NCBI GenBank assembly: GCA_012522275.1
Contig: JAAYKU010000256.1
Span: 2,639 to 66,638 of the forward strand
Direction: 5' to 3'
From: Smithella sp.
Lineage (GTDB): Bacteria; Desulfobacterota; Syntrophia; Syntrophales; Smithellaceae
Length of the DNA: 64,000 bases
In this document: positions 9,154-60,852 of the stretch, in pieces
Layout: every line of letters starts with the position of its first letter
How positions within the stretch are numbered: the stretch's first letter is position 1
Translations under genes and position numbers: made by a program
Notes under the pieces: generated by a model
Told to the model about the DNA's origin: nothing
What the model saw: only the letters and a program-made list of their open reading frames with translations
Databases searched by the model: none

Positions 9154-9912
9154 TTATCCCTTCAGCGTCTTGTAATGAGAGTTGACTTTTTCAATATAAG
9201 ACAGTGTTTCACCAGGCAGGCGGTGCGGGTTTTTTTCCAGATTGCCCATGCCCCAGTTATAGGCCGCCAGCGCAGCATTCACATCTCCTTTGTAGCGGTT
9301 CAAAAGCATTTTCAGATACCTGGTGCCGGCCATGATGTTTTCCCTTGGGTCATAGGGGTTTTTGACCCCAAGCTCCCTGGCCGTATCCGGCATAAGCTGC
9401 ATCAGCCCCATTGCGCCCGCAGGCGATGTCGCCGACGGATTGAAGTCGCTTTCCGCCTTGATCACAGATTCAACGAGAGCGGAATCGACATCATGCGCGG
9501 CCGCCGCCTGTTTGATAATTTGAGAAAAATCATTGTGTGTTGCAGCCGGGGAATCTGCCTCAATGGCGGTAGAGCTTTTTGCGACCCCGCCGATGCCGGC
9601 CGCTATTGCCGGCGCACAGCCTGCCGACTGCCGCAATAACGTATAATCCGCCTTGTCCCCCGTGCTGAAAATGCTGTGGAAAAGGCGTGTATTCATCTGG
9701 ATTTGCAAGGCGCGCAAAAGCAGCGTCAACTGCCTTTCGGTCGGCGCCGCGGATGCTGATGATTTAAAAGCATCTTGCCTGGCCGCCAATGTGTCCCGTA
9801 AAACGTCTCCGAAACCGACATTTTCCCGAAGCCGGCCGGCGGAGGCTTCAGGTCCGGGTTCACCTGGAGTTTCAATACGCTGAACAGAGGGAAAATCAGG
9901 AATTATAATCAT
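9154..9912 (-). CDS. Lytic transglycosylase (SLT domain) with no recognisable signal peptide; possible flagellar peptidoglycan-remodelling enzyme
   Basis: The C-terminal SLT core is VIKAESDFNPSATSPAGAMGLMQLMPDTARELG...AYNWGMGN, with the catalytic Glu in the AES motif. The N-terminal 120 aa are hydrophilic with no hydrophobic h-region. GGAG lies 5 nt upstream of the ATG. Confidence 0.8.
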   Translation of the reverse strand: MIIIPDFPSVQRIETPGEPGPEASAGRLRENVGFGDVLRDTLAARQDAFKSSASAAPTERQLTLLLRALQIQMNTRLFHSIFSTGDKADYTLLRQSAGCAPAIAAGIGGVAKSSTAIEADSPAATHNDFSQIIKQAAAAHDVDSALVESVIKAESDFNPSATSPAGAMGLMQLMPDTARELGVKNPYDPRENIMAGTRYLKMLLNRYKGDVNAALAAYNWGMGNLEKNPHRLPGETLSYIEKVNSHYKTLKG

Positions 9913-9970: not shown

Positions 9971-11455
9971 TTAAATAATTTTTATATAAGCGTCGACAAT
10001 GTCCGGGTCAAACTGTGTGCTTTTGTTGGCAATGAGCTCGGCAATGGCTTCTTCTTTGGGCATGGCGGGTCGGTAGGTACGGTTGTTGGTCATTGCGTCG
10101 AAGGCGTCGACGACGGCCATCACGCGCGCCAGCAGAGGGATCTCTTCCCCTTTCAGCCCCAGCGGATAGCCTTTTCCGTCCCATCGTTCATGGTGACACT
10201 GGACAATTTTCCTTTCATCAGCCAGTAAAGTGATCGGTTTCAAAATGTTTTCACCTATGGTGGGATGATTTTTAATAATCATGCATTCTTCTTCCGTAAG
10301 TTTTCCCTCTTTCAATAAAATACTGTCGGGCACGGCAATCTTGCCTACATCATGAAGAACACTGGCAATTCTGATGCTTTCGATTTCCTTTTGCGTACAG
10401 CCCAGGTTCTCGGCCAGACGGACCGCTTCGTCCGTGACGCGCCGGGAGTGCTCTTCTGTGTAGTGGTCGCGCGCCTGAATGGAAGAAATCAGGGAGCGAA
10501 GCGTATCCATGATGTTTAAATATATGCTTTCATAAAGTATTTTATTTTCCAGGTTTAAAGATGCGCGTTTGGTAAGGCTCAGAATATGGTGCAGGTCCTT
10601 TTTGTTGAAAGCCTCCCGGTTTTTCTTCCTGCGGATACTTAAAATGCCGAGGATGTTATTTCTGATCATCAACGGCGCGCAAATAAGAGATGGAGCCACC
10701 TCGGGGCGGTCATTGGCATTGATGAGCACGGCCTCCCTGCGCTCGACAACTTCGTTGAATATCATTTTCAGCCTGCGTTCCTGTGTGGCATTCTGATAAA
10801 GTCCGGAGGTTTTGCCACTGGTCACTTTATCATGAAATTCATTGTCCTGTTCGTCGAAAAGCATGATGGAGCAGACTTCGCCATCGACCAGCTTCAGGGC
10901 CAGATCGGCTATCTTCTGGAAGATGATTTCATTGTCCATCGGAGATTCTTCAATGGAGTCAAAAATATAGCTCTGTTTGGACAATGTTTCGGTTTTGTCA
11001 TCGAGTTTGAGCTCGGCAAGGATCTTTTCACAGGCCTCGGGCTTAAGAAGTTGCCTCCGACGCAGATGTATGTCAACTTTATACAAAAGATCGTCAATAT
11101 CGAACGGTTTCGTCAAAAAATCGACGGCGCCTTTTTTAATGGCGCTGACAGTCAGATCGGTCGTGGGATTTCCGGTAATCATGATCACGGCAACTGCGGG
11201 ATCGCGCTGTCTTACGGCGTGCAGCAGCTCCATGCCGCTCATGCCGGGCATCATGATGTCGCTGATGATGAGATCGAAGCTGTGGCTGTCGAGGATCCGA
11301 AGAGCCTCTTCCCCGGTTTCGGCTTCCTTTGTCTGATATCGAGGATTTTGTCCGAGTGCTTCGATAATGAGATTGCGGGTTGGCGAATAATCATCCACCA
11401 CCAGTATTTTTTTCGCTTCCTTACTGTGTCTGACTAGCCGGACTGCATGTGGCAC
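9971..11455 (-). CDS. Response regulator with REC-GAF-HD-GYP architecture (putative c-di-GMP phosphodiesterase, RpfG-like)
   Basis: REC domain (ILVVDDYSPT...LIISDIMMPGMSG...). The C-terminal HD-GYP motifs are HDVGKIAVPDSIL and HHERWDGKGYPLGL. A GTG start at 11455 is preceded by GGAG. Confidence 0.85.
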   Translation of the reverse strand: MPHAVRLVRHSKEAKKILVVDDYSPTRNLIIEALGQNPRYQTKEAETGEEALRILDSHSFDLIISDIMMPGMSGMELLHAVRQRDPAVAVIMITGNPTTDLTVSAIKKGAVDFLTKPFDIDDLLYKVDIHLRRRQLLKPEACEKILAELKLDDKTETLSKQSYIFDSIEESPMDNEIIFQKIADLALKLVDGEVCSIMLFDEQDNEFHDKVTSGKTSGLYQNATQERRLKMIFNEVVERREAVLINANDRPEVAPSLICAPLMIRNNILGILSIRRKKNREAFNKKDLHHILSLTKRASLNLENKILYESIYLNIMDTLRSLISSIQARDHYTEEHSRRVTDEAVRLAENLGCTQKEIESIRIASVLHDVGKIAVPDSILLKEGKLTEEECMIIKNHPTIGENILKPITLLADERKIVQCHHERWDGKGYPLGLKGEEIPLLARVMAVVDAFDAMTNNRTYRPAMPKEEAIAELIANKSTQFDPDIVDAYIKII

Positions 11456-15056: not shown

Positions 15057-15365
15057 TCAGGCAAACAGATCGATAATTGATTCTCCCACCATTTTGTCGG
15101 CAATCTGCTGTCCGCTCACGTTGTATGTGCCCTTATCTACCTGATCTTTAATCTCGCGAACTTTTTCCTCGCGTACATCAGGCAACTTTGACACTTCAAC
15201 TTTAGCTTTCTGAATATCCCTTGCCATGGTGGAAAGATCAACTTTTTCACTTGGTTTCACGGACGCAGCAGCCGGCTGCCTGTCAGCCGCACCGGCAGCA
15301 TTTTCGCTGCGCTGGTACTGCTGGATATACTGCGCGTTTACGTCTTTAATATCAGACACTTTCAT
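15057..15365 (-). CDS. flgM: Anti-sigma-28 factor FlgM
   Basis: The C-terminal FlgM signature is VREEKVREIKDQVDKGTYNVSGQQIADKMV. A strong RBS (AAGGAGAGG) and a sigma-28 promoter lie upstream. Confidence 0.85.
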   Translation of the reverse strand: MKVSDIKDVNAQYIQQYQRSENAAGAADRQPAAASVKPSEKVDLSTMARDIQKAKVEVSKLPDVREEKVREIKDQVDKGTYNVSGQQIADKMVGESIIDLFA

Positions 15366-15398: not shown

Positions 15399-15426
15399 CT
15401 ATCGGCAAAATCAAGATATTACTTTA
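15399..15426 (-). promoter_or_regulatory. Sigma-28 promoter of the flgM-flgN-flgK-flgL-csrA unit
   Basis: The minus-strand reading is TAAAGTAA-N12-GCCGATAG, about 30 nt upstream of the flgM ATG. Confidence 0.65.
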
Positions 15427-19239: not shown

Positions 19240-19953
19240 CTATACTAATTTCCCGATTCTGCTTGTCGAAATCTTGTCCATATCCTGCAGCGTCAAAATA
19301 ATTTTCTGATACGTTTCGAAAGTGCGCTGGATATTGATCATATCCGTCATTTCGCGCACCGCGTTGACGTTGGACATCTCCAGGTAACCACTGTTGACAC
19401 TGAAGCCGGCTGTATTTTTCGGTGCAGCATCTCCACGGTCGATATATCTGCCGTCGGCTGAACGAACCAGCGCCTGCGGGTTGGCAAAGGCCGTCACTTT
19501 GATTTTTCCGACCGGAACTTCGTCCACATAAATCATCCCTTCCTGGTTGATCTTTATTGACTCGCCGTCGATGACGAGCTTGCCTGTATCCCCCAGAACA
19601 TGGTCGCCCTGCGGCGTGACGAGCTCCATGTTCTTGTTGAGCATGAAACTTCCTTCCCGCGTATAGGCTCTTCCCTGCTTTGTTTGAACAGTAAAAAATC
19701 CCTCTCCTTCAATGGCCAGATCAAAGATATTGCCGGTTGTCTGCAATGTCCCCTGAGAAAAATCGATCGCGGATACAGTATGACCCAGCTCAGGAGAGGC
19801 GCCCTGATGTATATTTCTGCCTTTCATGGCATAATACAGGTGTTCCGCCTTGAACCCGGTGGTAGATGAGTTGGCGACATTGTTGGTTACAAAATCAAGC
19901 TCGAGCAGTTTCCTCGCTCCGGCCAGCCCGATATCAGTCACGTCATAACGCAT
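19240..19953 (-). CDS. flgF: Proximal rod protein FlgF
   Basis: Axial-protein N- and C-terminal motifs (NNVANSSTTGFKAE; LEMSNVNAVREMTDMINIQRTFETYQK). The ATG at 19953 is preceded by GGAAAGGAGAGG. The ORF-track extension to 20007 contains the sigma-54 promoter. Confidence 0.9.
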   Translation of the reverse strand: MRYDVTDIGLAGARKLLELDFVTNNVANSSTTGFKAEHLYYAMKGRNIHQGASPELGHTVSAIDFSQGTLQTTGNIFDLAIEGEGFFTVQTKQGRAYTREGSFMLNKNMELVTPQGDHVLGDTGKLVIDGESIKINQEGMIYVDEVPVGKIKVTAFANPQALVRSADGRYIDRGDAAPKNTAGFSVNSGYLEMSNVNAVREMTDMINIQRTFETYQKIILTLQDMDKISTSRIGKLV

Positions 19954-19979
19954 TTGCCTCTCCTTTCCATGAGCTAGTT

Positions 19980-19995
19980 TGCAAGCGATGTGCCA
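19980..19995 (-). promoter_or_regulatory. Sigma-54 promoter of the flgF-flgG-flgA-flgH-flgI-flgJ unit
   Basis: The minus-strand reading TGGCAC-ATCGC-TTGCA is a perfect -24/-12 match, 27 nt upstream of the flgF ATG. Confidence 0.8.
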
Positions 19996-20213
19996 GATAA
20001 CAGGCATGAAGCCGGACCACGGACCGCCGGCGACTTCTTGCGTCTTATCTTATTGATATTACAGATATTATAAAGGCATTTTCGGATAGGATCTTCAAAT
20101 TGGCTCACTTTGCCGGGTCTTTAAAATCCGGTAAGCATCTTTGCCCGTACGGCAATTTTTTACCCCGGGGAATATTTTTCCTCTTTAATGACGCAATGGC
20201 TTTACGGCTATTT

Positions 20214-20504
20214 TTATGAACGCTGATTCTCGTTGAGGGAATAGACAAAGGCGAGTATTTCGGCAACTGCCCGGTAGAGTTCAACCGGAATTTCCGTCCC
20301 CACCTTGAGTTTGCTCAATAACGCGGCAAGCTGCGGGTCGCTTTTAACCGGAATATCGCTTTCCAGGGCAAGCCGGATTATCCTTTCGGCAATTTCCCCG
20401 CGGCCTGAGGCGACAACGGCAGGGGCTGTATTTTTTTCAGCATCGTATTTTACGGCAGCCGCTGTTTTTACCAGCTGCTCAATATTATCTTGCTTCTTTC
20501 TCAT
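20214..20504 (-). CDS. Free-standing FlhB C-terminal (FlhB-CC) homologue, FlhX/YlqH-like
   Basis: The 96-aa protein aligns with the post-NPTH part of this window's own FlhB. AAAVKYDAEKNTAPAVVASGRGEIAERIIRLALESDIPVKSDPQLAALL...ELYRAVAEILAFVY aligns with [49 protein letters not shown]...SLYKAVAEVLAFVY. It has no NPTH motif and no TM segment. Confidence 0.8.
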   Translation of the reverse strand: MRKKQDNIEQLVKTAAAVKYDAEKNTAPAVVASGRGEIAERIIRLALESDIPVKSDPQLAALLSKLKVGTEIPVELYRAVAEILAFVYSLNENQRS

Positions 20505-20513
20505 TTTCCGTCT

Positions 20514-21662
20514 TTAAACAAAATTATTAACAATACCTGACGAACCTAGTAATATTTCATCAATATATTCCATTTTTTTCCGGCTTAGTCCGGTTGCCTT
20601 GAAACAATCGAACCTGTCTACGGCATAGCCGATTGCACACAGGGCGTCTTTGAGTTTTTGCGCTGTCTCACCAATCAGTTGCACACTTTTTTCTGTCTCG
20701 CACTGAATCAGGCAGTTCATCCGGCCTGCCTTGAGCGAGACATCCACCGCAATATGGCCGAGAATGTCCATATCGATAAAAATAACGACGCGACAGAAAG
20801 AAAATTTGTTTTCTCCGCGGGTATTTTTGTCGTCTGGAAATATAAAAATATCCGCCTGACGCAAAACCTGGCCAAGTGCCAGCGGCACCTGCAGATAAAG
20901 TCCGGACTCATTTTGCTGATAGGCAATACTCGCCGCCTGCCGACCCTCTATGCTGCCGAGCGCCCCGGTAACGAAAGATGATAAAGCTGCCAGCCTGGCC
21001 GTCTCCTGCCGGCCTTGTTTCCCCTGCCTTGCCTCTTGCAAAGCTGCTTCCAATTTTAACAAAAGAGCCTTGAGGTTGTCTTTGGGAAGATCTTCAGAAG
21101 GCCTGATGGCTGAACCGGCCGCCGCCGCTGAATCACTTTCCGGTAAAAGGCCGCATCTGGAAAGAAAATCCTTTACGAACATGGAATTGTTTTTTGTACG
21201 GGATGAAAAAATGAGGCCGCCGAAAATCGCCAGCAGAGCATCCGCCTCTTGGGGAGGGAAACCGGGCAGCCCGGTCGTCTTCAGAAGGGATGAAAATTCT
21301 GAAAGTCTTGCCAGGAGCTGCACAAAAGAATCAGGGTTGACGCGCCACTGCAGTAACTGTCCGTTTATTTTAGCTGCCATCTGCTGAGGCGCGGCGTCGA
21401 GCACATTGAACACGATCTGCGGTTGTACGCTTTGCACCCGGACACGGATTTGATCCCCGGCATTGAGCAAAACGGAGCCGGTTGCCCTGAAAGTGGCGTT
21501 TTTGGCGGACATCAGATAGCGGTCGGCGGCAATTTTTTCGATAACGCTGACGGTAATGGTTTCACCCGCCTTAAACTGCGACAGGGGCAGGTTCGTTTTG
21601 GAGGTTACGGAAACTGTTTCCGGCCTGGCGGGCATACCGGGTATTACTGAATTCACTGCCAT
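20514..21662 (-). CDS. FliK-like protein (second copy) with a C-terminal Flg_hook-type domain
   Basis: The C-terminal segment MDILGHIAVDVSLKAGRMNCLIQCETEKSVQLIGETAQKLKDALCAIGYAVDRFDC aligns with the bona fide FliK segment PSLGNLEMDVMVQNGTVRVLLIAENKEVHQTLAANMESLRGSLQNQGLVIERCEV. The N-terminal 250 aa are unrelated. Confidence 0.55.
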   Translation of the reverse strand: MAVNSVIPGMPARPETVSVTSKTNLPLSQFKAGETITVSVIEKIAADRYLMSAKNATFRATGSVLLNAGDQIRVRVQSVQPQIVFNVLDAAPQQMAAKINGQLLQWRVNPDSFVQLLARLSEFSSLLKTTGLPGFPPQEADALLAIFGGLIFSSRTKNNSMFVKDFLSRCGLLPESDSAAAAGSAIRPSEDLPKDNLKALLLKLEAALQEARQGKQGRQETARLAALSSFVTGALGSIEGRQAASIAYQQNESGLYLQVPLALGQVLRQADIFIFPDDKNTRGENKFSFCRVVIFIDMDILGHIAVDVSLKAGRMNCLIQCETEKSVQLIGETAQKLKDALCAIGYAVDRFDCFKATGLSRKKMEYIDEILLGSSGIVNNFV

Positions 21663-22129
21663 CAGGATGTCTCATTTTTTGTCCTGTAGAGGTCGATAAT
21701 CAAGCCTATTTCCGCCTCGGTGAAACCCGTCGCTTCAGCCGCCTGGGCCTGTGAGCATCCTCCTTTGATCATTTCCGCCACGCGGGCGTATTTATCGTCC
21801 ACATTTGATACCAAAGAGAGCTTTTTTTCATCAGAGGCTTCATTTTCTCCATTTTTCTCCAAGAGGGCCTTGACTCTTTTTTCCTTGAGATCGAGTTCGA
21901 GGGCGATTTCCTTGAGGGCAAGACGACTTTTTTCCAGTGCCTCGAGAAAACGGTCGGATGAGGCCTGAGACTCGGCCATAACCGTCTTAAAATCGTTAAT
22001 CATCTCCTTGTGGGACTGGTTCAGGGGGTTTTTCAGATTGGTATTGACACGCCACAGAAGGAAAATAACCGCCAGCAGCAAAACAAGATCGATAATCAGC
22101 TGCAAAATGACGGGGCTGAAGATGTCCAT
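21662..22129 (-). CDS. Membrane-anchored coiled-coil protein with a small C-terminal helix-turn-helix-like module (resembles DUF2802 flagellar-locus proteins)
   Basis: One N-terminal TM segment (ILQLIIDLVLLLAVIFLLW) and a charged coiled-coil middle. The C-terminus is YARVAEMIKGGCSQAQAAEATGFTEAEIGLIIDLY. It is translationally coupled on both sides. Confidence 0.35.
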   Translation of the reverse strand: MDIFSPVILQLIIDLVLLLAVIFLLWRVNTNLKNPLNQSHKEMINDFKTVMAESQASSDRFLEALEKSRLALKEIALELDLKEKRVKALLEKNGENEASDEKKLSLVSNVDDKYARVAEMIKGGCSQAQAAEATGFTEAEIGLIIDLYRTKNETS

Positions 22130-22130
22130 G

Positions 22131-22439
22131 CTATACCTTTATGTTGACATGAGCTCCCTGATCCGGGTCTTCATCCGGATCGTCCGCCGCGGGTGCGCCA
22201 TGAAGAGTCTGCTGCCCGGCGTCGGACTGGCGGTCTTGTCTTTCTTCTTTTCTTCTTAACTTCGTTTTTTGAGCTTCCTCAAACTCTCTGATTTTTTCAC
22301 GCGCCAGCCTGTCTTCTTCAGAAAGCTTCAACTGGAAATATCTCTGCTGCATATCGGCATGCTGCTGCTGGATCTGCTGCACTTTCTCCGTAACGGAAGT
22401 CTGCAAAATCGACGATTGAACATCTATGGCTCTGACCAT
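22131..22439 (-). CDS. Hypothetical 102-aa coiled-coil protein, first gene of the accessory flagellar unit
   Basis: Gln/Glu/Arg-rich helical sequence (KVQQIQQQHADMQQRYFQLKLSEEDRLAREKIREFEEAQKTKLRRKEER) with an acidic Pro-rich tail. No family recognised. Confidence 0.4.
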   Translation of the reverse strand: MVRAIDVQSSILQTSVTEKVQQIQQQHADMQQRYFQLKLSEEDRLAREKIREFEEAQKTKLRRKEERQDRQSDAGQQTLHGAPAADDPDEDPDQGAHVNIKV

Positions 22440-22495: not shown

Positions 22496-22524
22496 TAATC
22501 GTCAATAGTGCAAAATTACTTAAA
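22496..22524 (-). promoter_or_regulatory. Weak sigma-28-like promoter candidate for the 22439-20214 unit
   Basis: The minus-strand reading is TTAAGTAA-N12-GACGATTA (5/8 and 6/8 matches to TAAAGTTT / GCCGATAA). Confidence 0.25.
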
Positions 22525-22543: not shown

Positions 22544-23314
22544 TCACCGGCAGGGGATTCTGATTGTAACCGTACTGATTCCATTTTCCCGGTCAAACTC
22601 AACCCGGGCGGAATATTTTTCGAGAATTTCCAGCGCGGCCGAGATGCTTTCGATCCGGTTCGCATCCAGTGTGCCGGATTCCTCGCCACTGTGTTTCATC
22701 AAAACAAAAACATTTTCATCATCATGGCCGGTTGTCAGAGAAAATTCCTTTTTTTCGCTTTTGAGCGCAGCCGCCATGGCAAACCTTATCAGACACCAGA
22801 AACTCAGCGACAACTCGGCCGCATGGCCCTTAAAGTCGGGCACCTCCTTGTCGAAGTCGAGCTTTTTGACGATTTCATGTTTGAAATCCAGATAGAAATC
22901 TGCAAAGCGCATCTCGGCGGCAAGCATCTGTGAAAGGCTGATTCTCTCTTCTTCCTTTGCGGCAAGTGCGTAAAATTTTGTGGACACGTCCCGAAACATC
23001 CCGAAAAAAGATTCGCTCTCGCTGTTTACGGAACGGATATCATTTTTAATTTTCTGTATCTCTTCTAGCAGTGCGCCTGCCGCATCCGGATGCTGTTCGC
23101 TGAGCTTTTTGTTGAGCATATCGATCCTGCGCTCAAGGAGTTTGGAGCGCCCCATGATGCCGTTTAACGGATTTGCAAAATTATGCAAAATACCCGGCAT
23201 CAGCTCCCTGAGGAAGGTTGCGGTGAATTCTTTTTCCAGCAGATGCTGTTGTTTTTTATCTTTTTCCATCCCGGCCTTTGTGCTGATCATCAGCCGCTTT
23301 GCAAGAAAAATCAA
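22544..23314 (-). CDS. Soluble histidine-kinase-like protein with an intact H-box but degenerate ATP-binding boxes (pseudokinase or phosphatase candidate)
   Basis: HisKA-like H-box LHNFANPLNGIMGRSKLL. In the C-terminal HATPase-like fold the N-box Asn, the DxGxG and the GxGxGL positions are not conserved (LIRFAMAAAL; LMKHSGEES; ISAALEILEKYSARVEFDRENGISTVTIRIP). It has no TM or sensor domain. Confidence 0.55.
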   Translation of the reverse strand: MIFLAKRLMISTKAGMEKDKKQQHLLEKEFTATFLRELMPGILHNFANPLNGIMGRSKLLERRIDMLNKKLSEQHPDAAGALLEEIQKIKNDIRSVNSESESFFGMFRDVSTKFYALAAKEEERISLSQMLAAEMRFADFYLDFKHEIVKKLDFDKEVPDFKGHAAELSLSFWCLIRFAMAAALKSEKKEFSLTTGHDDENVFVLMKHSGEESGTLDANRIESISAALEILEKYSARVEFDRENGISTVTIRIPCR

Positions 23315-23321
23315 CTGCCCT

Positions 23322-23972
23322 TCAAATGATCAGATAATTTATAAAATAAACATCCTTGACGCTGCCTTCGCCTAAAATCCCGTCGAGTGCAGAGGTTAAA
23401 TCTTTTTTCAGTTTTTTGCGCTCTTCAAGCGCCCTCAAAGCGACAACACTTCTTGCTCGGGCCGCCTTCAGAATGGCGCTCCGTAAAGCGACATTTTTCT
23501 CCACAAGATCACCTTGCACTCCTGCCGCAACATCAAACGCGATATCGCAAAACAGCACATGCGTGTCTCCCCGCGCGTCTTTTAGGTCGATCATAAAATC
23601 AGTGAAATATACCGTTTCGGTTCTCTCCGGCGCGGCCGCCTGGGGCATCGATACGGACGAATCCTCAAGGGCGGCGCGTTGTTTTACCGGGTCTATTTCT
23701 TGTGTCTGCTGTTGATATTGTGCCGTAATTTGGACGGCCTGCCTTTGGTTTATCGTCCGGCCCACTAAAAACAAGGTTACAGAAACGACAATCACCAAAG
23801 CCACCGCCGCCGACACGCCGACAATGAGCAGCTTGTTTGTCGCCCATCGCCTTATGATTCCGGCCTGTGTCGCCGCGTGAGCATCGTCTGGCGCCTGTGC
23901 GGCGGCAATCGCCTGTTCATCGAGTTCGGGAATGCTTTCCCATAGATCCAGCTTCGCTTTTTTCACTTCCAC
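23322..23972 (-). CDS. FliL-family protein, second paralogue
   Basis: One TM segment, then the FliL core VYFTDFMIDLKDARGDTHVLFCDIAFDV...LRSAILKAARARSV...LKKDLTSALDGILGEGSVKDVYFINYLII. The start is GTG. Confidence 0.7.
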   Translation of the reverse strand: MEVKKAKLDLWESIPELDEQAIAAAQAPDDAHAATQAGIIRRWATNKLLIVGVSAAVALVIVVSVTLFLVGRTINQRQAVQITAQYQQQTQEIDPVKQRAALEDSSVSMPQAAAPERTETVYFTDFMIDLKDARGDTHVLFCDIAFDVAAGVQGDLVEKNVALRSAILKAARARSVVALRALEERKKLKKDLTSALDGILGEGSVKDVYFINYLII

Positions 23973-28893: not shown

Positions 28894-29967
28894 TTATCCG
28901 AAGATCTTAACCCTTTTCTGTTCATATACAAACGCCAGAACTTCCGCCACCGCCTTGTATAGAGATTCCGGCACCATCGCGTTCACTTTAACTATTTTAT
29001 ACAATACCTGTGCCAATGGCTTGTCCTCAATGATGGGCACATCATTTTCCGCGGCAATGTTTCTTATCTTTTCGGCTATGAAATCCGCCCCCTTGGCTAC
29101 TACGACCGGCGCCGCCATTTTATCCGGTGAATATTTAATGGCGACGGCTAGGTGTGTCGGGTTGGTGATGACCACATCCGCCTTGGGCACTTCGGCCATC
29201 ATGCGCCGGTGGGCCATTTCCCTTTGAATCCGTCTGATTCTGGCTTTAATCAGGGGGTCTCCTTCCGTATTTTTGAATTCATCCTTTATCTCCTGCTTGG
29301 TCATCCGCAGGCTCTTTTCGTATTCCCAGCGCTGATAGGCGTAATCGAGCGCCGCCAGGAAAACCAGCACGACCGTCATCGCCAGCAGTATTTTAAAGCA
29401 GATACCTCCCATGTAAGCGAAAGTTCCCCAAGTCGGCTGATCCACCAGTAACGACAAATTGCCGAATTCCCGGCTGATAATCAGATAGGCGACTGAGCTG
29501 ATGACACAGACCTTCAAAACTCCCTTGAGCAGCTCGGCAAGCGACCGGACGGAAAAAAGTCTTTTGAACCCTTTGGCCGGGCTGATTTTTTCGATCTTCG
29601 GCTGGAGGCTTTCGCTGGAAAACAAAAAACCGAACTGAAGGACATTGCCGAGTACCGCAGCGATCAAAACGGCAATAATCAACGGAAAAAGAATGCCGAA
29701 ACCTTTGAAAATGCATCCAGTCAGAATCCTGCCGGCGCTGTCCGCGGTTAAATCCGCGCCGCCGGCCCGCCGCAGCACCCAAGCCATTAAATCGAGTGTT
29801 TTTGCAAGCATTCCCGGCCCGCCGAAGTAAAAGAAAATAAGCCCGGCAACCAGTATGCTGACCGACACAACTTCCTGCGAGCGTGCGATCTGGCCTTTTT
29901 CACGCGCCTCTTCCCGCCGCTTCGATGTTGCCTGTTCAGTTCGTTCCTGATCGTCGTTTTCTGCCAT
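28894..29967 (-). CDS. flhB: Flagellar export switch protein FlhB
   Basis: Four TM segments and the NPTH autocleavage site (VVITNPTHLAVAIKY). Confidence 0.95.
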   Translation of the reverse strand: MAENDDQERTEQATSKRREEAREKGQIARSQEVVSVSILVAGLIFFYFGGPGMLAKTLDLMAWVLRRAGGADLTADSAGRILTGCIFKGFGILFPLIIAVLIAAVLGNVLQFGFLFSSESLQPKIEKISPAKGFKRLFSVRSLAELLKGVLKVCVISSVAYLIISREFGNLSLLVDQPTWGTFAYMGGICFKILLAMTVVLVFLAALDYAYQRWEYEKSLRMTKQEIKDEFKNTEGDPLIKARIRRIQREMAHRRMMAEVPKADVVITNPTHLAVAIKYSPDKMAAPVVVAKGADFIAEKIRNIAAENDVPIIEDKPLAQVLYKIVKVNAMVPESLYKAVAEVLAFVYEQKRVKIFG

Positions 29968-33831: not shown

Positions 33832-34374
33832 TTATTGAATGACAAATTCAGTGAAGTACACTTTATTCACTCTGCCTTTATTATGATCAAGAATCATGTT
33901 CAGTCTGGTGGCAATCTCATCGCGCAGTCTCTGTTTGCCCAGCGGGTCGATCATCTCGCGATAGGTTTTTGAAGTCAGCAAATCCAGAATCGTATCACGC
34001 AGCATCGGGTTTAAACGTCTTAATTCATCGACTGTCCTCTGCTCGGAAAGCTCCACCTGCATGGTGACTTTCAGATACCTCTCTGTTTCGTTGTCCAGCA
34101 GATTGACAATGAAAGGTTCCATCGGGAAAAAAACAATAGTTTTGGGCTGCTCGACGGCGGCGGGCTTGACCTCGGCGCTTTGGGGGTTTGGCTTTAAAAA
34201 GAAGAAGTAGGCGCCGGCCGCCCCTCCCGCGATCAAAAACAAAAAGACAATCAGAATGATAATGAGCGGCAGTTTAGACTTTTTTGTGCCTGCCTGCTGC
34301 TGCTGCCCGTTTTCATTTTCATCGTCCGACACGTTTTGCCCCGTGTCTATTTCTCTTTTATCATCGGCTGCCAT
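33832..34374 (-). CDS. fliL: Basal-body-associated protein FliL
   Basis: One TM segment and the FliL core (FFPMEPFIVNLLDNETERYLKVTMQVEL...RLNPMLRDTILDLL...VNKVYFTEFVIQ). I chose the ATG at 34374; the ORF-track start is 34392. Confidence 0.85.
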   Translation of the reverse strand: MAADDKREIDTGQNVSDDENENGQQQQAGTKKSKLPLIIILIVFLFLIAGGAAGAYFFFLKPNPQSAEVKPAAVEQPKTIVFFPMEPFIVNLLDNETERYLKVTMQVELSEQRTVDELRRLNPMLRDTILDLLTSKTYREMIDPLGKQRLRDEIATRLNMILDHNKGRVNKVYFTEFVIQ

Positions 34375-34414
34375 AAACGTCACCACCCCCAAAGTTTCAT
34401 TTAATCAGTTTGAT

Positions 34415-34430
34415 AGCAAAGAACATACCA
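34415..34430 (-). promoter_or_regulatory. Sigma-54 promoter of the fliL-fliMNOPQR-flhBA-flhFG-fliA unit
   Basis: The minus-strand reading is TGGTAT-GTTCT-TTGCT, 41 nt upstream of the fliL ATG. Confidence 0.7.
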
Positions 34431-36548: not shown

Positions 36549-38279
36549 TTATACAAATAAACTTATCTTCCCCGCATCCGGTACGGGCATGTTTCTATTC
36601 CGGACGATAAATGAACTGTCTTGACCTGCCCCGTTCCCACTTGCGCTCTTTACTCCCCCGTGCTGAGCGCCTGAGTGCTCATGATAAAACGCCTGCTGCT
36701 GGCTGAAGCCCTGTGCATGCTGTTCATGTCGGTCTTGCATCATGACCTCGCAGCGTTCAATGACCAGCCCCTGGTTTTGCAAAGACCCTCTGAGCGATTC
36801 CATGTTAGCCGCGAGTGTCTGATGAACTTCTTTGTTTTCCGCGATCAGTAAAACCCGGACAGTTCCGTTTTGCACCATGACATCCATTTCCAGGTTGCCC
36901 AGCGAAGGCGGCGCAAGCGTGATTTTTACCCGCCCGCTTTCGTTGCCGGCAACTTCAATGAACCTGGCGGCGATGCGCTCGATTAATTGAGCCGGGGAAA
37001 TGTTTTCCTGCAGTATCTTTTGCGTCGGTGCAATTGTAGCCGTTACATTTGTCTGCTGAGTGTCTGTTCTTTCCTGCAGGGGAGCTTTGTCGGTAACAGA
37101 CGTTTTGCCTTTATTGCCGGGAAGAGTAACCTCACCGCCCGGCTTATCATGAGCATACTGCCTTTGCGGGTCGCTGATTTCAAAGACGGCTTTTTTCTCT
37201 GTCTGATGCATCGCCTCCGCCTTTGCGGATCCATACTTTATTTTCTCCGTGTCACTTTCTTCTTCCCGCCCTGCATGGAAGTGCATTGGGTGTGCCTCAG
37301 GCGATGCGGGCAGATCGTGTATGCGGAAACTATGGACCGCCCTGCCTTCTTGTGCAGTTTGTCTTTCATGAACGCTGCCGAAAGGGTGCTTCCCCGTTTC
37401 CTCAACAGAGGAGGTTGAGCGTTTACTTATTTCGTCTGACGGTATTTTTTGAGCCGGGGCGCCCTGGTTTTCTTTTTGTAGTGATGCAGTTTTCTCCATC
37501 ACATCACTTTCAATAGCTTTTTGAGTAAAGAACAGGGACTCTGAAGTTGTGTCAATTCCCAAACGGCCTTCATGCCCGCTCCGTCGTGTGTCGCCGGTTT
37601 TCACAAAATCACTTCGATGAAGCGGCTCTTTTACAAATTCCGGTTGAGTATCTTCGTCCGCAGCCGCAGCGTGCAGCCGCACCTCAGTGCCTTTTTCCGC
37701 GGCGCTTTCACCCGGCCGGTTGTTAAAAAGCTGCCACCCCTTTTGCTCTTCCCGCATCGCGTCGGCATTTACAGACGGCATATCCGCCGGGCGGCCGCCG
37801 GATGCAAGCTTTCCGGGTCTTTGTGTAAAGATATGTTCATTTTTCAAATCCCCCGTGCGGCTGTCCGTATTCTGATTAAAAACAGCTGCATCGTCTGATT
37901 CTTTCACAGGGCTGTCAGAGGTGCTGCCTTCAAGGATACGGTGGAGGTACCCGGCCGGCACGCACACGACTGATGACGCTACGGATGGAGCATGGTGCTC
38001 CTGTTTCTCTTTCATTTCATCTTTGAAAAAAGTGATGGGCTCTTCTCTGGACTGATCAAAATAGTCCGCAGCATCCTGCCCGGTCGGCCCAGGAAGCGTA
38101 CCAATATTGTGCCTGAACGCCTCAGCCAGTACACCCTCGAAATTACAGGACGGGAGCTCACCGTCGCCTTTGGTAAAATCGCAGCCCGGTTGCGCGCCGC
38201 ACAGCTCAGACAGCCACGGCAGTTCGTCCGCACCTGAGGGCAAGAGCATCCCGTTTATCAATCCTGTAGAAATTTCCAT
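36549..38279 (-). CDS. fliK: Hook-length control protein FliK
   Basis: Long low-complexity N-terminal and central region, then a C-terminal Flg_hook domain (GRVKITLAPPSLGNLEMDVMVQNGTVRVLLIAENKEVHQTLAANMESLRGSLQNQGL). It lies upstream of flgD-flgE. Confidence 0.8.
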   Translation of the reverse strand: MEISTGLINGMLLPSGADELPWLSELCGAQPGCDFTKGDGELPSCNFEGVLAEAFRHNIGTLPGPTGQDAADYFDQSREEPITFFKDEMKEKQEHHAPSVASSVVCVPAGYLHRILEGSTSDSPVKESDDAAVFNQNTDSRTGDLKNEHIFTQRPGKLASGGRPADMPSVNADAMREEQKGWQLFNNRPGESAAEKGTEVRLHAAAADEDTQPEFVKEPLHRSDFVKTGDTRRSGHEGRLGIDTTSESLFFTQKAIESDVMEKTASLQKENQGAPAQKIPSDEISKRSTSSVEETGKHPFGSVHERQTAQEGRAVHSFRIHDLPASPEAHPMHFHAGREEESDTEKIKYGSAKAEAMHQTEKKAVFEISDPQRQYAHDKPGGEVTLPGNKGKTSVTDKAPLQERTDTQQTNVTATIAPTQKILQENISPAQLIERIAARFIEVAGNESGRVKITLAPPSLGNLEMDVMVQNGTVRVLLIAENKEVHQTLAANMESLRGSLQNQGLVIERCEVMMQDRHEQHAQGFSQQQAFYHEHSGAQHGGVKSASGNGAGQDSSFIVRNRNMPVPDAGKISLFV

Positions 38280-38311: not shown

Positions 38312-38327
38312 AGCAAGGGACGTGCCA
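38312..38327 (-). promoter_or_regulatory. Sigma-54 promoter of fliK-flgD-flgE
   Basis: The minus-strand reading TGGCAC-GTCCC-TTGCT is a perfect match, 33 nt upstream of the fliK ATG. Confidence 0.8.
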
Positions 38328-38608: not shown

Positions 38609-39247
38609 CTATTCGCTTTTAAAACCTCCCGCCTTGGTGATCTCTTTGGTTATCTCCACCGCCTTGGCCGGTGTGAGATAGGCCCACAGGGCGCCGGCCT
38701 TGTCTTTTTTCATATTCATGGTGATACCGGCCGCTGTTTTGGTGTCGAGCTTTTCCATCATGGGACCGGCTTTCGCCGGAGGCGTGCTTTCATAGACTTT
38801 GGCCATTTCTTTAAATCTTTTGATATTATCCTCGCGCACTTTGTCGAGCTCGGCGGCAAGCCTGTCCTCCTGCGCTTTTAAGATGGTCATCTTTTCGACT
38901 ATTTCTCTGCGCAGCGATAAAAGCCTCTCCTCTTCGGCGCGCAAAAGGTTTTCACGCTCGTCGAGTTCCGTCTTTTTTGACGCGAGCGCCGTAGCCAGAT
39001 CTCTTTGCTCGGCGAGAATGTCCCTAAGAGCGTCTTTCGGTGGCACGGGCAATTCGTCGGCGGCCTGGGCCTCCTGAGTCTGTGCCGCCTGCGTGTCGGG
39101 TGCTTGAGACTGCGCCTGCGCCGGCCTGACGATGGATGCGCCGGAGGTAAAAATATCGCCCTTCCCGAATATTCCGGAGACGGCCGCTACTTTCACCACA
39201 ATGAAAACAGCCACCAGTATCTGTACAGTGATGATTATTTTTTTCAT
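38609..39247 (-). CDS. Membrane-anchored flagellar-locus protein with an MgtE_N/MotE-like C-terminal domain (YlxF position)
   Basis: N-terminal TM segment, a coiled coil, and the C-terminus YESTPPAKAGPMMEKLDTKTAAGITMNMKKDKAGALWAYLTPAKAVEITKEI. It lies between fliJ and fliK. Confidence 0.5.
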   Translation of the reverse strand: MKKIIITVQILVAVFIVVKVAAVSGIFGKGDIFTSGASIVRPAQAQSQAPDTQAAQTQEAQAADELPVPPKDALRDILAEQRDLATALASKKTELDERENLLRAEEERLLSLRREIVEKMTILKAQEDRLAAELDKVREDNIKRFKEMAKVYESTPPAKAGPMMEKLDTKTAAGITMNMKKDKAGALWAYLTPAKAVEITKEITKAGGFKSE

Positions 39248-45471: not shown

Positions 45472-45487
45472 AGCAAATCATGTACCA
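45472..45487 (-). promoter_or_regulatory. Sigma-54 promoter of the flgB-flgC-fliE-fliF-fliG-fliH-fliI-fliJ unit
   Basis: The minus-strand reading is TGGTAC-ATGAT-TTGCT. It is embedded in an 11-bp perfect inverted repeat (45472-45496). Confidence 0.7.
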
Positions 45488-45498
45488 TGATTTGCTTT

Positions 45499-46908
45499 TC
45501 AGTCGTCGGCCTCCCCGTCTTTGACCCCATATTCATTCAATTTATTACGCATGGTGCGCACGCTGATGCCTAAAATCCGGGAGGCTTTTGTTTTATTCCA
45601 GTTGACTTTATCGAGGGTGCTGAAAATCATTCTCTTTTCCATTTCCTGAAGTGTATTTTCACCATCCACGTCAATTTCCTGGCGCAGTTGTGGAAACTGT
45701 CGTTCGTCGGCTTTATGCGCCGGCCCCTGCCCTTTTATAGCATCCATCAGCAGGTCGGAAGGCTCGATCTGTCCGTTTTTACAAATCAGCACCGCCCTTT
45801 CGATGATATTTTCGAGCTCGCGGACATTTCCCGGCCAGTTATGAGCGTGGAGCACGGCCTTTGCCTGCCGGCTGAGCGCCGGCGCCTCTTTTTCGTTCAC
45901 CTCGCTGTATTTTCTTATGAAATGATCAGCCAGGAGAAAAATATCTTCGCCTCTTTCGCGCAGGGGCGGAACTTTGACCGGTATGACGTTGAGACGGTAG
46001 TAAAGATCGCTGCGGAAAGTTTTCTGCTCGATGCGCTCGAGCAGATTTGCGTTGGTGGTCGCGATAATGCGGACATCGACGGGAACAGGCATTTTACCGC
46101 CCAGACGGTCCACTTCGGACTCCTGGATTACACGCAGGAGCTTGGCCTGCAGTTGGATATCCATCTCCGATATTTCATCGAGCAGAAGCGTACCTCCGTC
46201 GGCAAGCTCAAACTTGCCTGTTTTTTTGACGGCCGCGCCGGTGAATGCTCCCTTTTCATAGCCGAACATTTCACTTTCCAGAAGCGAAGCGGGAATTGCC
46301 GCACAGTTGACCGCAACAAAGGGCATCCGGCTGCGGCCACTGTGACGGTACACAAAACGGGCGAATAATTCTTTCCCCGTGCCGCTGTCTCCCTCGATAA
46401 GGACGCTTGATTTGCTGCCCGCCACGGTTTTCAGCATTTCAAGCAGGTCGATTATTTTCTGATCCTGCGTGATGATTTCACGCCCGGGATAGGCTTCTTC
46501 TTCACTATCGGTATGCCTGTCGTCCGATTTGGGCCGGGCACCGGCGGCCAGTACGTTTTTGACGGCAAATTCCAGGTCATCGAGCGAAAAGGGTTTCATG
46601 ATGAATTCGGAAGCGCCTTCTTTCATCGCCTCCACCGCCGTGCTGACCGTGCCGTAGGCGGTGATCAGAATGACGGGCGTTTCAGGAGAGATCCGCTTGA
46701 CGCCTTTCAAAACGTCCATGCCACTCATCTTCGGCATGCGCATGTCCGTGACCACCCCGGCGAAGCGGCCGTTTTTGAATCTGGCCAGCGCGTCGGCCCC
46801 GTTTTCCGCCATTTCCACCTCATAGCCGCAACCGGTCAGTGACTCATAAAGAGCCATGCGCATGGAGGAATCGTCATCGACGATGAGCAGTCTTTCCACA
46901 TCCGGCAT
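45499..46908 (-). CDS. Sigma-54-dependent response regulator (REC-AAA+-HTH), FlrC/FleR/FlgR-like
   Basis: REC domain with the phospho-acceptor context VVTDMRMPKMSG, Walker A GDSGTGKE, the sigma-54 contact loop GAFTGA and a C-terminal Fis-type HTH. It lies directly upstream of flgB. Confidence 0.85.
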   Translation of the reverse strand: MPDVERLLIVDDDSSMRMALYESLTGCGYEVEMAENGADALARFKNGRFAGVVTDMRMPKMSGMDVLKGVKRISPETPVILITAYGTVSTAVEAMKEGASEFIMKPFSLDDLEFAVKNVLAAGARPKSDDRHTDSEEEAYPGREIITQDQKIIDLLEMLKTVAGSKSSVLIEGDSGTGKELFARFVYRHSGRSRMPFVAVNCAAIPASLLESEMFGYEKGAFTGAAVKKTGKFELADGGTLLLDEISEMDIQLQAKLLRVIQESEVDRLGGKMPVPVDVRIIATTNANLLERIEQKTFRSDLYYRLNVIPVKVPPLRERGEDIFLLADHFIRKYSEVNEKEAPALSRQAKAVLHAHNWPGNVRELENIIERAVLICKNGQIEPSDLLMDAIKGQGPAHKADERQFPQLRQEIDVDGENTLQEMEKRMIFSTLDKVNWNKTKASRILGISVRTMRNKLNEYGVKDGEADD

Positions 46909-46923
46909 TTAAGATGATCTCCT

Positions 46924-48162
46924 TTAAAGTTGAGCGTCCTGCACGACAGGCAGACTGATGCTGACCACCATGCCTCCTTGAGGTGCATTGTCCACCGTGA
47001 TCAGGCCGTTGTGCTCGCTGACGATGTTGTGGACAATGGCCAGCCCCAGACCGGAGCCGTTTTCTTTCGTGCTGAAGAAGGGGTCGAAAATTCTGGACCT
47101 GTCCGCCGCCGGGATGCCCGGTCCCGCATCCTGGAAAATTATTTCCGCCATCCGTACCCGGGGCTCGAGGGGACTTTCCGGCGCGAGACGGGTCATGATG
47201 CTAATCTCGCCTCCTTCCGGCATGGCCTGTTGCGCATTGAGAATGACATTGAGAAATATCTGCTTGATCATCTCCGCATCGGCCATGATCAAAATATCGC
47301 TTGTGTCCATATAAACGGAAATTTCGATCCCCGCCTGCTCGATAATCTGCTCGGAAAACTCGATGACCTCCGTGAGCACCTGATGGAGCCCGATGACTTT
47401 CATCTGAGGCAGGGGCCTGCGTGTAAATAAAAGCAGGTTGGAAATTTTATTGTCCACATTTTTCACGGATGAAATAATCCGGCCGGCCCGTTCTCGGTTC
47501 TTGTCATCAGCAAGATTTTTTAAAAGCAGCGAAGCATAAAGCTCGATGCTGCCCAGAGGATTGCGCACCTCGTGGGCGATGTTGGCCGCCATCTCTCCCA
47601 TCGCTGCGAATTTTTCCGTGCGTTTGGCCATCTCTTCGAGCTTTTCAATCTGTGTGACGTCGCGAATGACCAGAACATGGCCGATCAGCTCCGCGGCCGG
47701 TGATTTGAAGGGCGAACAGAACACCTCGAGCGTGCGTCCGGCGGTCTTTACCTTGCTTCCCGCCTCCGCACCGAAACATTGCGCCGGATCCGCCCCGATC
47801 CCGCCCCCGGCCGCCGGGGATTCGAACAAGACACTGAAGTGTCTGCCGGCCGCCTGTGCCTGCCGGATGCCGGTGAGGGTTTCCGCACAGGTATTGAGGG
47901 TCTGGATTTTCCCTTCAATATCGGTAACAATCACGCCGTTGATCAGGCTTTCGAGAATATTGTGCAGGTAATTTCTGGTGCGCTCTTTTTCTTCAACACT
48001 TGCCGAAAGCTCCTCGTTTTTGCTTTCCAGCTCGCGATTCAAAAGGGCGAAGCGCTCTTCGAGCCTCGCATAGGCGCGCTGCAGCTCGGTGGTGGCCTTG
48101 TTGAAGCTTTCCAAAGACTCTACGAGCTGTGCTAAATCCTGCATGTTTTTTTTCGTATTCAT
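46924..48162 (-). CDS. Cytoplasmic PAS histidine kinase, FlrB/FleS/FlgS-like
   Basis: No TM segments. It has a coiled coil, a PAS-like segment, the H-box AHEVRNPLGSI and a complete N/G1/G2 HATPase (FQDAGPGIP...GSGLGLAIV). The ATG at 48162 lies 1 nt after the upstream stop. Confidence 0.85.
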   Translation of the reverse strand: MNTKKNMQDLAQLVESLESFNKATTELQRAYARLEERFALLNRELESKNEELSASVEEKERTRNYLHNILESLINGVIVTDIEGKIQTLNTCAETLTGIRQAQAAGRHFSVLFESPAAGGGIGADPAQCFGAEAGSKVKTAGRTLEVFCSPFKSPAAELIGHVLVIRDVTQIEKLEEMAKRTEKFAAMGEMAANIAHEVRNPLGSIELYASLLLKNLADDKNRERAGRIISSVKNVDNKISNLLLFTRRPLPQMKVIGLHQVLTEVIEFSEQIIEQAGIEISVYMDTSDILIMADAEMIKQIFLNVILNAQQAMPEGGEISIMTRLAPESPLEPRVRMAEIIFQDAGPGIPAADRSRIFDPFFSTKENGSGLGLAIVHNIVSEHNGLITVDNAPQGGMVVSISLPVVQDAQL

Positions 48163-48163
48163 T

Positions 48164-50928: not shown

Positions 50929-50944
50929 AGCAAATTGCATACCA
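50929..50944 (-). promoter_or_regulatory. Sigma-54 promoter of the SPOR/TPR-kinase-regulator unit
   Basis: The minus-strand reading is TGGTAT-GCAAT-TTGCT. Confidence 0.7.
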
Positions 50945-60836: not shown

Positions 60837-60852
60837 AGCAATCCATATGCCA
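60837..60852 (-). promoter_or_regulatory. Sigma-54 promoter of the che operon
   Basis: The minus-strand reading is TGGCAT-ATGGA-TTGCT, 65 nt upstream of the cheR ATG. Confidence 0.7.

Follow-up and report, generated by a model that had tools for sequence, protein, structure and literature searches.

A 2026 model of the flagellar export switch holds that the last five residues of FliK engage and eject the post-cleavage C-terminal domain of FlhB (FlhB-CC, or CCD), which keeps the export gate in its early mode and is lost as the sigma-28 genes turn on; in Salmonella, loss of the CCD blocks early secretion (PMC13344023). FliK switching needs these five residues together with residues 301–350 of the C-domain (PMC10965912), and early substrates dock in a hydrophobic pocket of the CCD formed by A286, P287, A341 and L344 (PMC9307174). 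Free-standing copies of this domain have also been described but are poorly understood: FlhX from Helicobacter pylori partly replaces FlhB-CC and supports export when FlhB-CC is deleted (Wand 2006 and Smith 2009, as cited in the P. putida paper), and in Pseudomonas putida a T3S4 gene forms a pair with flhX that has been named fliK2-flhX, is conserved across Pseudomonas and is FliA-dependent, with fliK2 itself being termed uncharacterised (P. putida paper). A flhX-fliK pair has likewise been noted in Nitratiruptor. Here we describe a related locus within a 64,000-nt stretch of the Smithella sp. contig JAAYKU010000256.1 (positions 2,639 to 66,638 of the forward strand; this whole stretch is called the window), in which four minus-strand genes (g1 to g4, from 22439 to 20214) encode a helical protein with a FliK-type tail, a putative FipA/FlrD-like membrane protein, a second FliK-like protein (g3, FliK2) and a free FlhB-CC domain (g4, FlhX). 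An earlier note on this DNA, made from the sequence alone, knew of no characterisation of the pairing of a FliK-like protein with FlhX and called the two remaining proteins unknown. The first of these views has to be given up in light of the pairs from P. putida and Nitratiruptor, and the second does not apply to the membrane protein, since the DUF2802 protein FipA/FlrD is a characterised FlhF partner and polarity factor of Vibrio, Pseudomonas and Shewanella (PMC11620751). The finding hence lies in how known parts, themselves functionally uncharacterised, are newly arranged, and does not amount to a new kind of system: new are g1 as a constant partner bearing a FliK-type tail, the optional nature of the FipA-like gene, a sigma-28 motif conserved across lineages and the conservation of the FlhX pocket.

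In P. putida KT2440 (PP_4328-PP_4329), as in the window, the T3S4/Flg_hook gene is found immediately upstream of the gene encoding FlhB-CC only, and in both cases the pair is additional to the canonical fliK and flhB; g3 is a putative orthologue of PP_4328. In P. putida a DUF2802 gene (PP_4331) lies near fliK2-flhX in a different, convergent operon, whereas in the window the pair is co-directional and translationally coupled with g1 and the FipA-like gene, between fliA and flgF.

The window contains a large minus-strand flagellar cluster, whose first part comprises flgB-C, fliE-F-G-H-I-J, fliK and flgD-E and which continues with fliL-M-N-O-P-Q-R (the fliO assignment being queried), flhB-A-F-G and fliA; after fliA come a FliL paralogue, a HisKA-like gene and g1–g4, followed by flgF-G-A-H-I-J and flgM-N-K-L (Table 1). 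The unit does therefore lie between fliA and flgF, as had been claimed, but it does not adjoin fliA, with the FliL paralogue and the HisKA-like gene intervening. Reading the junctions directly from the sequence gave TAG-c-ATG for g1/g2 (1-nt gap), TGATG for g2/g3 (1-nt overlap) and TAA-agacggaaa-ATG for g3/g4 (9-nt gap), exactly the coupled four-gene unit that the earlier note had described. The same junction geometry is repeated in 13 orthologous loci, and the four genes form one real operon.

The identity of g4 is clear from its match to the Bac_export_2 profile, which covers only the last 75 positions of this profile (261–335 of 335, E=1e-20), and from its 51% identity to residues 274–348 of the window FlhB (75 aa, one gap); the best NCBIfam model is TIGR00789 (flhB_rel), with 100.1 bits under a cut-off of 117.35. 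When aligned to the FlhB proteins of the window and of Salmonella, g4 starts about ten residues before the NPTH point and the NPTH site is absent; across 25 FlhX sequences the corresponding columns are variable to the point of being effectively random. There is also no hydrophobic segment in g4, the best 19-residue mean Kyte-Doolittle hydropathy being 1.3. The assignment as a FlhB-CC domain only, with neither NPTH site nor membrane domain, is borne out by these comparisons and places g4 alongside H. pylori HP1575, YlqH and the TIGR00789 family, which are also post-cleavage FlhB-CC domains of about 90–100 aa free of membrane domain and NPTH site. The H. pylori flhX gene is not known to lie next to a FliK-like gene. 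Judged by sequence, FlhX retains the residues of the FlhB pocket for early (rod/hook-type) substrates: in Salmonella FlhB numbering, A286 is kept in 23 of the 25 sequences and P287, A341 and L344 are kept in all of them, with docking of such substrates to FlhX being a prediction. A tblastn search with FlhX against plasmids mostly returned full-length FlhB or SctU. It also identified a free FlhX of 108 aa (Bac_export_2, E=3e-15) on the chromid NZ_CP030127.1 of the alphaproteobacterium Indioceanicola profundi (L017, 4953–5279), between fliP and fliG. No recognisable T3S4 gene is found beside it, and pairing with FliK2 is therefore not universal; a possible FlhX/FliK2 pair on this chromid was considered and is unsupported, as the nearby 492-aa open reading frame (ORF) has no Pfam match.

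In case of g3, the FliK-type C-terminal domain proposed for it emerged from several comparisons. The Flg_hook (PF02120) match has an E-value of 8e-6 and 26.0 bits, below the gathering score of 29.8, although PF02120 is recorded for 22 of 24 close homologues; BLASTP pairs residues 291–350 with the part of the window's canonical FliK (576 aa) that carries Flg_hook (E=0.001). In the AlphaFold2 (AF2) model, which has a mean pLDDT of 62 that rises to about 80 in the C-domain, the T3S4 domain spans residues 254–371, and Foldseek matches it to the T3S4 domain of PscP (5cuk) with probability 1.0, a TMt of 0.57 and an rmsd of 3.1 over 76 columns (E=0.037). According to the model, then, g3 carries the T3S4 fold, which it shares with FliK, YscP, PscP and HpaC; its sequence also ends in the FliK-type terminal pentapeptide. 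The N-terminal two thirds of the model consist of a disordered N-terminus, a beta-barrel at about residues 30–88 and a helical region at 110–238 (pLDDT 65–80), so this part of FliK2 is predicted to be folded (beta-barrel plus helical), unlike the disordered ruler of FliK. HpaC from Xanthomonas is a T3S4 protein reported to bind HrcU-C; FliK2 is likewise a T3S4 protein and seemingly not a ruler, its own binding to FlhB-C or FlhX being putative. With the whole g3 model, Foldseek returned 5cuk as the single meaningful match and none for the N-terminal domains, and PDB sequence searches with profiles of g1, g2 and g3 gave no useful match.

A profile search with g3 against 1.84 billion representatives returned 2499 clusters at E<=1e-3 and 506 at E<=1e-10. 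Because these clusters are mostly full-length proteins of about 380 aa, the few named members being annotated as FliK and coming from Syntrophobacterales, Syntrophaceae or 'Deltaproteobacteria', FliK2 is a distinct and widespread family. In some family members of 490–600 aa (P0015 at L008 7593–9392, P0145, P0146, P0147, P0177 and L029 4324–5889), the N-terminal beta-barrel or the segment that follows it is present in two or three tandem copies, which is reminiscent of the repeat-driven length variation in type III rulers.

For g1, no match was obtained in Pfam, NCBIfam or the PDB. In its AF2 model, a single helix covers residues 2–73 (pLDDT about 90), and the sequence beyond it is acidic and disordered. 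The tail of all 23 g1 proteins has the pattern [HYF...]-[IV]-[DN]-[IV]-[KTQR]-[VAG] (for example HINIKV, HIDIKA and IIDIRV), while the roughly 40 residues preceding this tail are unconserved. The tails of the FliK2 family are of the same type: among 140 representatives, position -5 is V, L or I in 130, position -4 is N or D in 125 and the last residue is A, V or I in 134, with ...VDLFA, ...LDVKA and ...VDVRA as typical endings. FliK from E. coli has the C-terminus GVDIFA, its terminal pentapeptide being VDIFA. A strict version of the motif is terminal in 5 of the 279 ORFs in the window that encode 80 aa or more, and a relaxed version is found among the 42 flagellar proteins of the window only in g1, FliK2, FliK (KISLFV) and FlgM (SIIDLFA). 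The FliK-type tail may thus be a general recognition signal for the export gate or the FlhB CCD. We also tried g1 as the provider of a C-terminal strand that replaces the missing beta-1 of FlhB-CN, and this idea is not supported: profile-profile comparison of g1 with FlhB-C gave a probability of 0.3, with nothing found, and the tail is also disordered in a g1-FlhX fusion model, a weak test given that g1 was unaligned. As a separate observation, FlgM of this lineage ends in GES(I/V/L)(I/V/L)D(L/I)FA-COOH, a FliK-type pentapeptide that is kept in 13 loci (orthologues in L001-L012, L027 and L030); the FlgM proteins of Salmonella and Bacillus are not known to have such a tail.

The membrane protein g2 exhibits a transmembrane (TM) segment at residues 7–25 (mean Kyte-Doolittle hydropathy 3.08) and a putative coiled region at residues 60–95 that is rich in charged heptad-like sequence. 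DUF2802 matches were found in all 14 family members (best E=3.4e-7), all below the Pfam cut-off (window g2: 19.5 bits against a gathering score of 33.5), and DUF6115 matches in 13 of the 14, again all below the gathering score; the DUF2802-like membrane protein of the earlier note is retained with these sub-threshold matches. G124, E140 and L143 are invariant in the family and are separated by 16 and 3 residues, as are G110, E126 and L129 of VpFipA, a likeness of spacing only; in Vibrio, FipA requires G110 and L129 in order to bind FlhF (PMC11620751). Furthermore, the window and all loci with enough upstream sequence carry flhF and flhG 3–5 kb upstream of the unit. FipA/FlrD shares with g2 the N-terminal TM segment, the coiled region, the DUF2802-like domain, the G...E..L spacing and the co-occurrence with flhF/flhG, and g2 is on this basis a probable FipA/FlrD-like protein that may bind FlhF. 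It differs from FipA/FlrD in belonging to a Desulfobacterota lineage, in its sub-threshold Pfam scores, which are equally close to DUF6115, and in the position of its gene, which is inside the fliK2-flhX operon and not at the end of a flhA-che operon. In the PDB, the g2 profile also matched designed repeat proteins, but these matches are probably spurious.

The gene orders of the unit were compared across related loci. The genome scan returned only Smithellaceae loci, the closest genomic relatives all being Smithella, Smithellaceae or Syntrophaceae metagenome-assembled genomes; the word-indexed homologue searches reach close relatives only, even from a profile, and more distant loci came from a metagenome scan with a three-sequence alignment as query. 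The stretch from flhB to flgA, including g1–g4, is syntenic in 14 Smithellaceae loci, with identities to the window proteins of 46–83% for g1, 51–68% for g2, 34–64% for g3 and 58–76% for g4. In the 13 more distant metagenome loci, FliK2 is only 25–30% identical to the window protein, and FlhX lies directly downstream of it in all 12 of those whose contig continues past FliK2; the co-occurrence that the earlier note wanted checked thus extends well beyond this genome. Seven of the distant loci (L019-L022, L026, L027 and L029) have g1 directly upstream of FliK2 and no g2, with the order fliA-g1-FliK2-FlhX-flgF in L026, L027 and L029, whereas L024 and L030 have g1-g2-FliK2-FlhX, in L030 also with the FliL paralogue and the HisKA-like gene. 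Wherever the contig extends far enough, g1 is the gene immediately ahead of FliK2 or of g2-FliK2. The JGI contig L018 has a gamma/beta-like order (flhF-flhG-fliA-cheY-cheZ-cheA-motAB-cheW); there, FliK2 (381 aa) has a 4-nt overlap with a divergent FlhX of 95 aa, the pair being convergent with cheW, and no g1 was found next to it. Because of these gene orders, many of which are without the DUF2802 gene, the conserved core is g1-FliK2-FlhX in this clade and FliK2-FlhX more widely, with the FipA-like gene as an optional insert. A unit of four, as initially proposed, is accordingly found in the Smithellaceae, L024 and L030 but not in the many related loci that have no DUF2802 gene.

The timing of the unit can be approached through its promoters. 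An alignment of the intergenic region upstream of g1 from 14 loci revealed a sole conserved block, TTAAGTAAT-N11-(T)GACGAT, which in the window corresponds to the predicted sigma-28 (FliA)-type promoter and resembles the promoter-like site of the window flgM (TAAAGTAAT...GCCGATA, 15400–15426). Textbook TAAAG-N14/15-GCCGATAA sites are present at the equivalent position in seven distant loci, and a site of this type is also found upstream of FliK2 in L018; with its consensus sigma-28 site and its convergence with cheW, the L018 pair resembles that of P. putida. FliK2 would in this respect differ from canonical FliK, whose promoter is of sigma-54 type. Exact sigma-54-type sites (TGGCAC-N5-TTGC) precede flgF, at the downstream end of the unit, and fliK, and relaxed ones precede flgB and fliL. 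The flgF ORF as listed (19240–20007) starts 18 codons too early, and since the extension holds the sigma-54 site the true start is probably M19 (19953), which has a good ribosome-binding site, GGAAAGGAGAGG, ahead of its ATG. No terminator was recognised after g4, where the lone hairpin (20141–20155) has its T-run on the other strand. Taken together, the unit looks like a late sigma-28 operon between sigma-54 early operons, the sigma-28 promoter being a motif prediction, and this reading is consistent with the FliA dependence found by experiment for the P. putida fliK2-flhX pair. As regards the cluster as a whole, TGGYAY-N5-TTGC sites precede flgF, fliK, flgB, fliL and two further genes, and a sigma-54 activator and a PAS histidine kinase adjoin flgB, which suggests a Vibrio/Pseudomonas-like hierarchy of sigma-54 followed by sigma-28.

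From a probable sigma-28 promoter, the operon provides a soluble paralogue for each half of the export-specificity switch, and we infer that FlhX acts as a detachable surrogate of the CCD under the control of FliK2 and g1; this is the simplest reading, which we favour tentatively, at somewhat less than even confidence. Because of the sigma-28 (FliA) promoter, if this is real, the operon would be transcribed once the hook-basal body is complete and FlgM has exited, that is, after FliK has acted on FlhB. After ejection of the resident CCD, FlhX could then occupy FlhB; alternatively, it could act in the cytoplasm by binding early substrates and FliK. FliK2 would contribute a T3S4 switch domain and a terminal pentapeptide without a FliK-like disordered ruler, and g1, as the constant third partner, would present a FliK-type pentapeptide from a long helix on a flexible acidic tether. 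By means of the T3S4 domain and the tail, FliK2 and g1 may bind FlhX and govern if it docks and at what point, while g2, added in this lineage, probably anchors the products or FlhF at the flagellar pole. Together, g1, FliK2 and FlhX would adjust the export state of gates, or make it more stable, once the hook is complete. A number of points weigh against this mechanism. The contacts between the products are predicted, and their effect could be re-arming, locking or sequestering; the sigma-28 promoter is predicted from its motif, and read-through from the upstream fliA is possible. The Pfam score of g3 lies under the gathering threshold and its Foldseek E-value is only 0.037. FlgM of this lineage has the same tail, such that the motif may serve more generally in gate recognition or export and not be specific for the CCD, and the g1 tail is disordered and undocked in the AF2 fusion of g1 and FlhX, again a weak test with the g1 half lacking an alignment. 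In the literature, no reported phenotype was found for a fliK2 deletion.

The view of the earlier note, in which the pair is a spare or decoy copy of the specificity switch, is plausible and compatible with these data. One such role for FlhX would be that of a pure spare part, in which a backup or replacement CCD returns to FlhB-CN and brings back export of the early type, for example for rod or hook repair or restart, with FliK2 as the dedicated ruler or switch that ejects it again. The support of export by H. pylori FlhX upon deletion of FlhB-CC, as cited in the P. putida paper, the block of early secretion upon CCD loss in Salmonella (PMC13344023), the early-substrate pocket kept in FlhX and the T3S4 domain and tail kept in FliK2 all agree with such a role. 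Nonetheless we regard it as unlikely: sigma-28 timing would have FlhX appear when early export should be over, the fold predicted for the N-terminal half of FliK2 (beta-barrel plus helices) sets it apart from a secreted disordered ruler, and g1 is left without a role. FlhX could instead be a cytoplasmic decoy which, jointly with FliK2 and g1, takes up early substrates that are left over, and free FliK, once the switch has occurred and so avoids clogged late gates or the premature flipping of new gates at another pole. In favour of a decoy are the predicted late (sigma-28) expression, the conservation of the substrate pocket in a soluble protein and the presence of FlhF/FlhG in the carriers, which therefore probably build new polar flagella in each cycle; yet the co-encoding and translational coupling of a T3S4 protein and a tail-bearing protein would go unexplained and the binding is predicted only, leaving the decoy with a rather small chance of being correct. 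FliK2 could also be a second ruler, one that sets hook or rod length in an alternative structure, with FlhX as its private receptor, and the two or three tandem beta-barrels in some family members (492–599 aa) do recall ruler length variation. The window, however, holds no second set of hook, rod or export-gate genes, and both the late (sigma-28) timing and the predicted folding of the N-terminal region argue against a ruler; this is by far the least probable of the alternatives.

It may further be that the genes do not constitute a single system, with g2 acting only with FlhF in polar placement, like FipA, FliK2/FlhX and g1 being separate, and the tight packing reflecting no more than a compact cluster. 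The loss of g2 from the module in the seven distant loci listed above and the location of the P. putida DUF2802 gene in a different operon, convergent with fliK2-flhX, are in line with this. Against it, the order g1-FliK2-FlhX, the overlaps and the shared promoter persist at a FliK2 identity of only 25–30%, and g2, where present, sits inside the unit with the TGATG overlap onto g3; we consider such independence improbable. A bolder extension of the surrogate mechanism would see in g1-FliK2-FlhX a copy of the FliK/FlhB-CCD switch in the cytoplasm, through which this 'irreversible' switch becomes adjustable: FlhX, as a replacement CCD, would be made only after CCD ejection, FliK2 and g1 would compete for or gate its docking, and the pentapeptide would be the general CCD-engaging signal of FliK, FliK2, g1 and, in this lineage, FlgM. 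This extension is speculative and has little probability in our estimate; if true, the cell could re-arm, lock or time out individual export gates.

Table 1. Position of the g1–g4 unit, its canonical counterparts, promoter-type sites and neighbouring genes in the window.
Feature	Position	Strand	Description
g1	22131-22439	-	102 aa; helical, acidic disordered linker; C-terminal HVNIKV-COOH
g2	21662-22129	-	155 aa; N-terminal TM helix, coiled region, C-terminal DUF2802/DUF6115-like helix-turn-helix domain (putative FipA/FlrD-like)
g3 (FliK2-like)	20514-21662	-	382 aa; FliK-type T3S4 C-domain; tail IVNNFV-COOH
g4 (FlhX)	20214-20504	-	96 aa; free-standing FlhB-CC (CCD) paralogue
Sigma-28 (FliA)-type promoter, predicted	22498-22522	-	TAAGTAAT-N11-GACGAT, about 60 nt upstream of g1
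Sigma-54-type promoter	19981-19995	-	exact TGGCAC-N5-TTGC upstream of the probable flgF start; marks the downstream end of the unit
Sigma-54-type site	38313-38327	-	second exact TGGCAC-N5-TTGC, upstream of fliK
Further sigma-54-type sites	45473-45487, 34416-34430, 50930-50944, 60838-60852	-	TGGYAY-N5-TTGC
Canonical FlhB	28894-29967	-	NPTH present; full-length counterpart of g4
Canonical FliK	36549-38279	-	576 aa; Flg_hook E=4e-16; tail KISLFV-COOH; counterpart of g3
FlgM	15057-15365	-	FliK-type terminal pentapeptide
Canonical FliL	33832-34392	-	upstream of fliM
FliL paralogue	23322-23972	-	216 aa; directly after fliA
HisKA-like protein	22544-23314	-	between FliL paralogue and g1
MgtE_N-like protein	38609-39247	-	212 aa; between fliJ and fliK
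Sigma-54 activator	45499-46908		adjoining flgB
PAS histidine kinase	46924-48186		adjoining flgB
Response regulator	9971-11455	-	GAF and HD-GYP-type (HD_5) domains; cluster edge
SLT lytic transglycosylase	9154-9912	-	cluster edge

Several neighbouring genes deserve mention. The cluster encodes two FliL paralogues, the second of which, after fliA, is more divergent. Next to it, the HisKA-like gene encodes a conserved protein of about 240–255 aa that occurs in L030 and throughout the Smithellaceae loci but is absent from L026, L027 and L029; it exhibits only a weak HisKA match with the H-box-like sequence HNFANPLNGI, no HATPase_c match and no TM segment and may be a degenerate kinase-like regulator. 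Its ORF is listed with a TTG start, the true start probably being an ATG located about 16 codons further in. The protein encoded between fliJ and fliK has a weak MgtE_N-like domain, and this interval is in some clusters the place of a FlbB/FliG-like accessory gene. At the cluster edge, the response regulator could provide a link to cyclic di-GMP, and the SLT protein could be a FlgJ-type muramidase partner, given that flgJ here has the rod-binding domain only.

Many bacteria encode a free-standing FlhB-CC domain next to a second FliK-like protein, which raises the question of its role. The locus described here, a case of moderate interest to specialists of the flagellum, offers three handles on this question, namely the apparent late (sigma-28) control in every lineage examined, the constant tail-bearing third partner and the early-substrate pocket in FlhX, each of which leads to predictions on binding partners and phenotypes that are open to test in a tractable carrier, for instance Pseudomonas putida. 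Should the products act on the occupancy of the export gate, the specificity switch would be tunable and not simply one-way.

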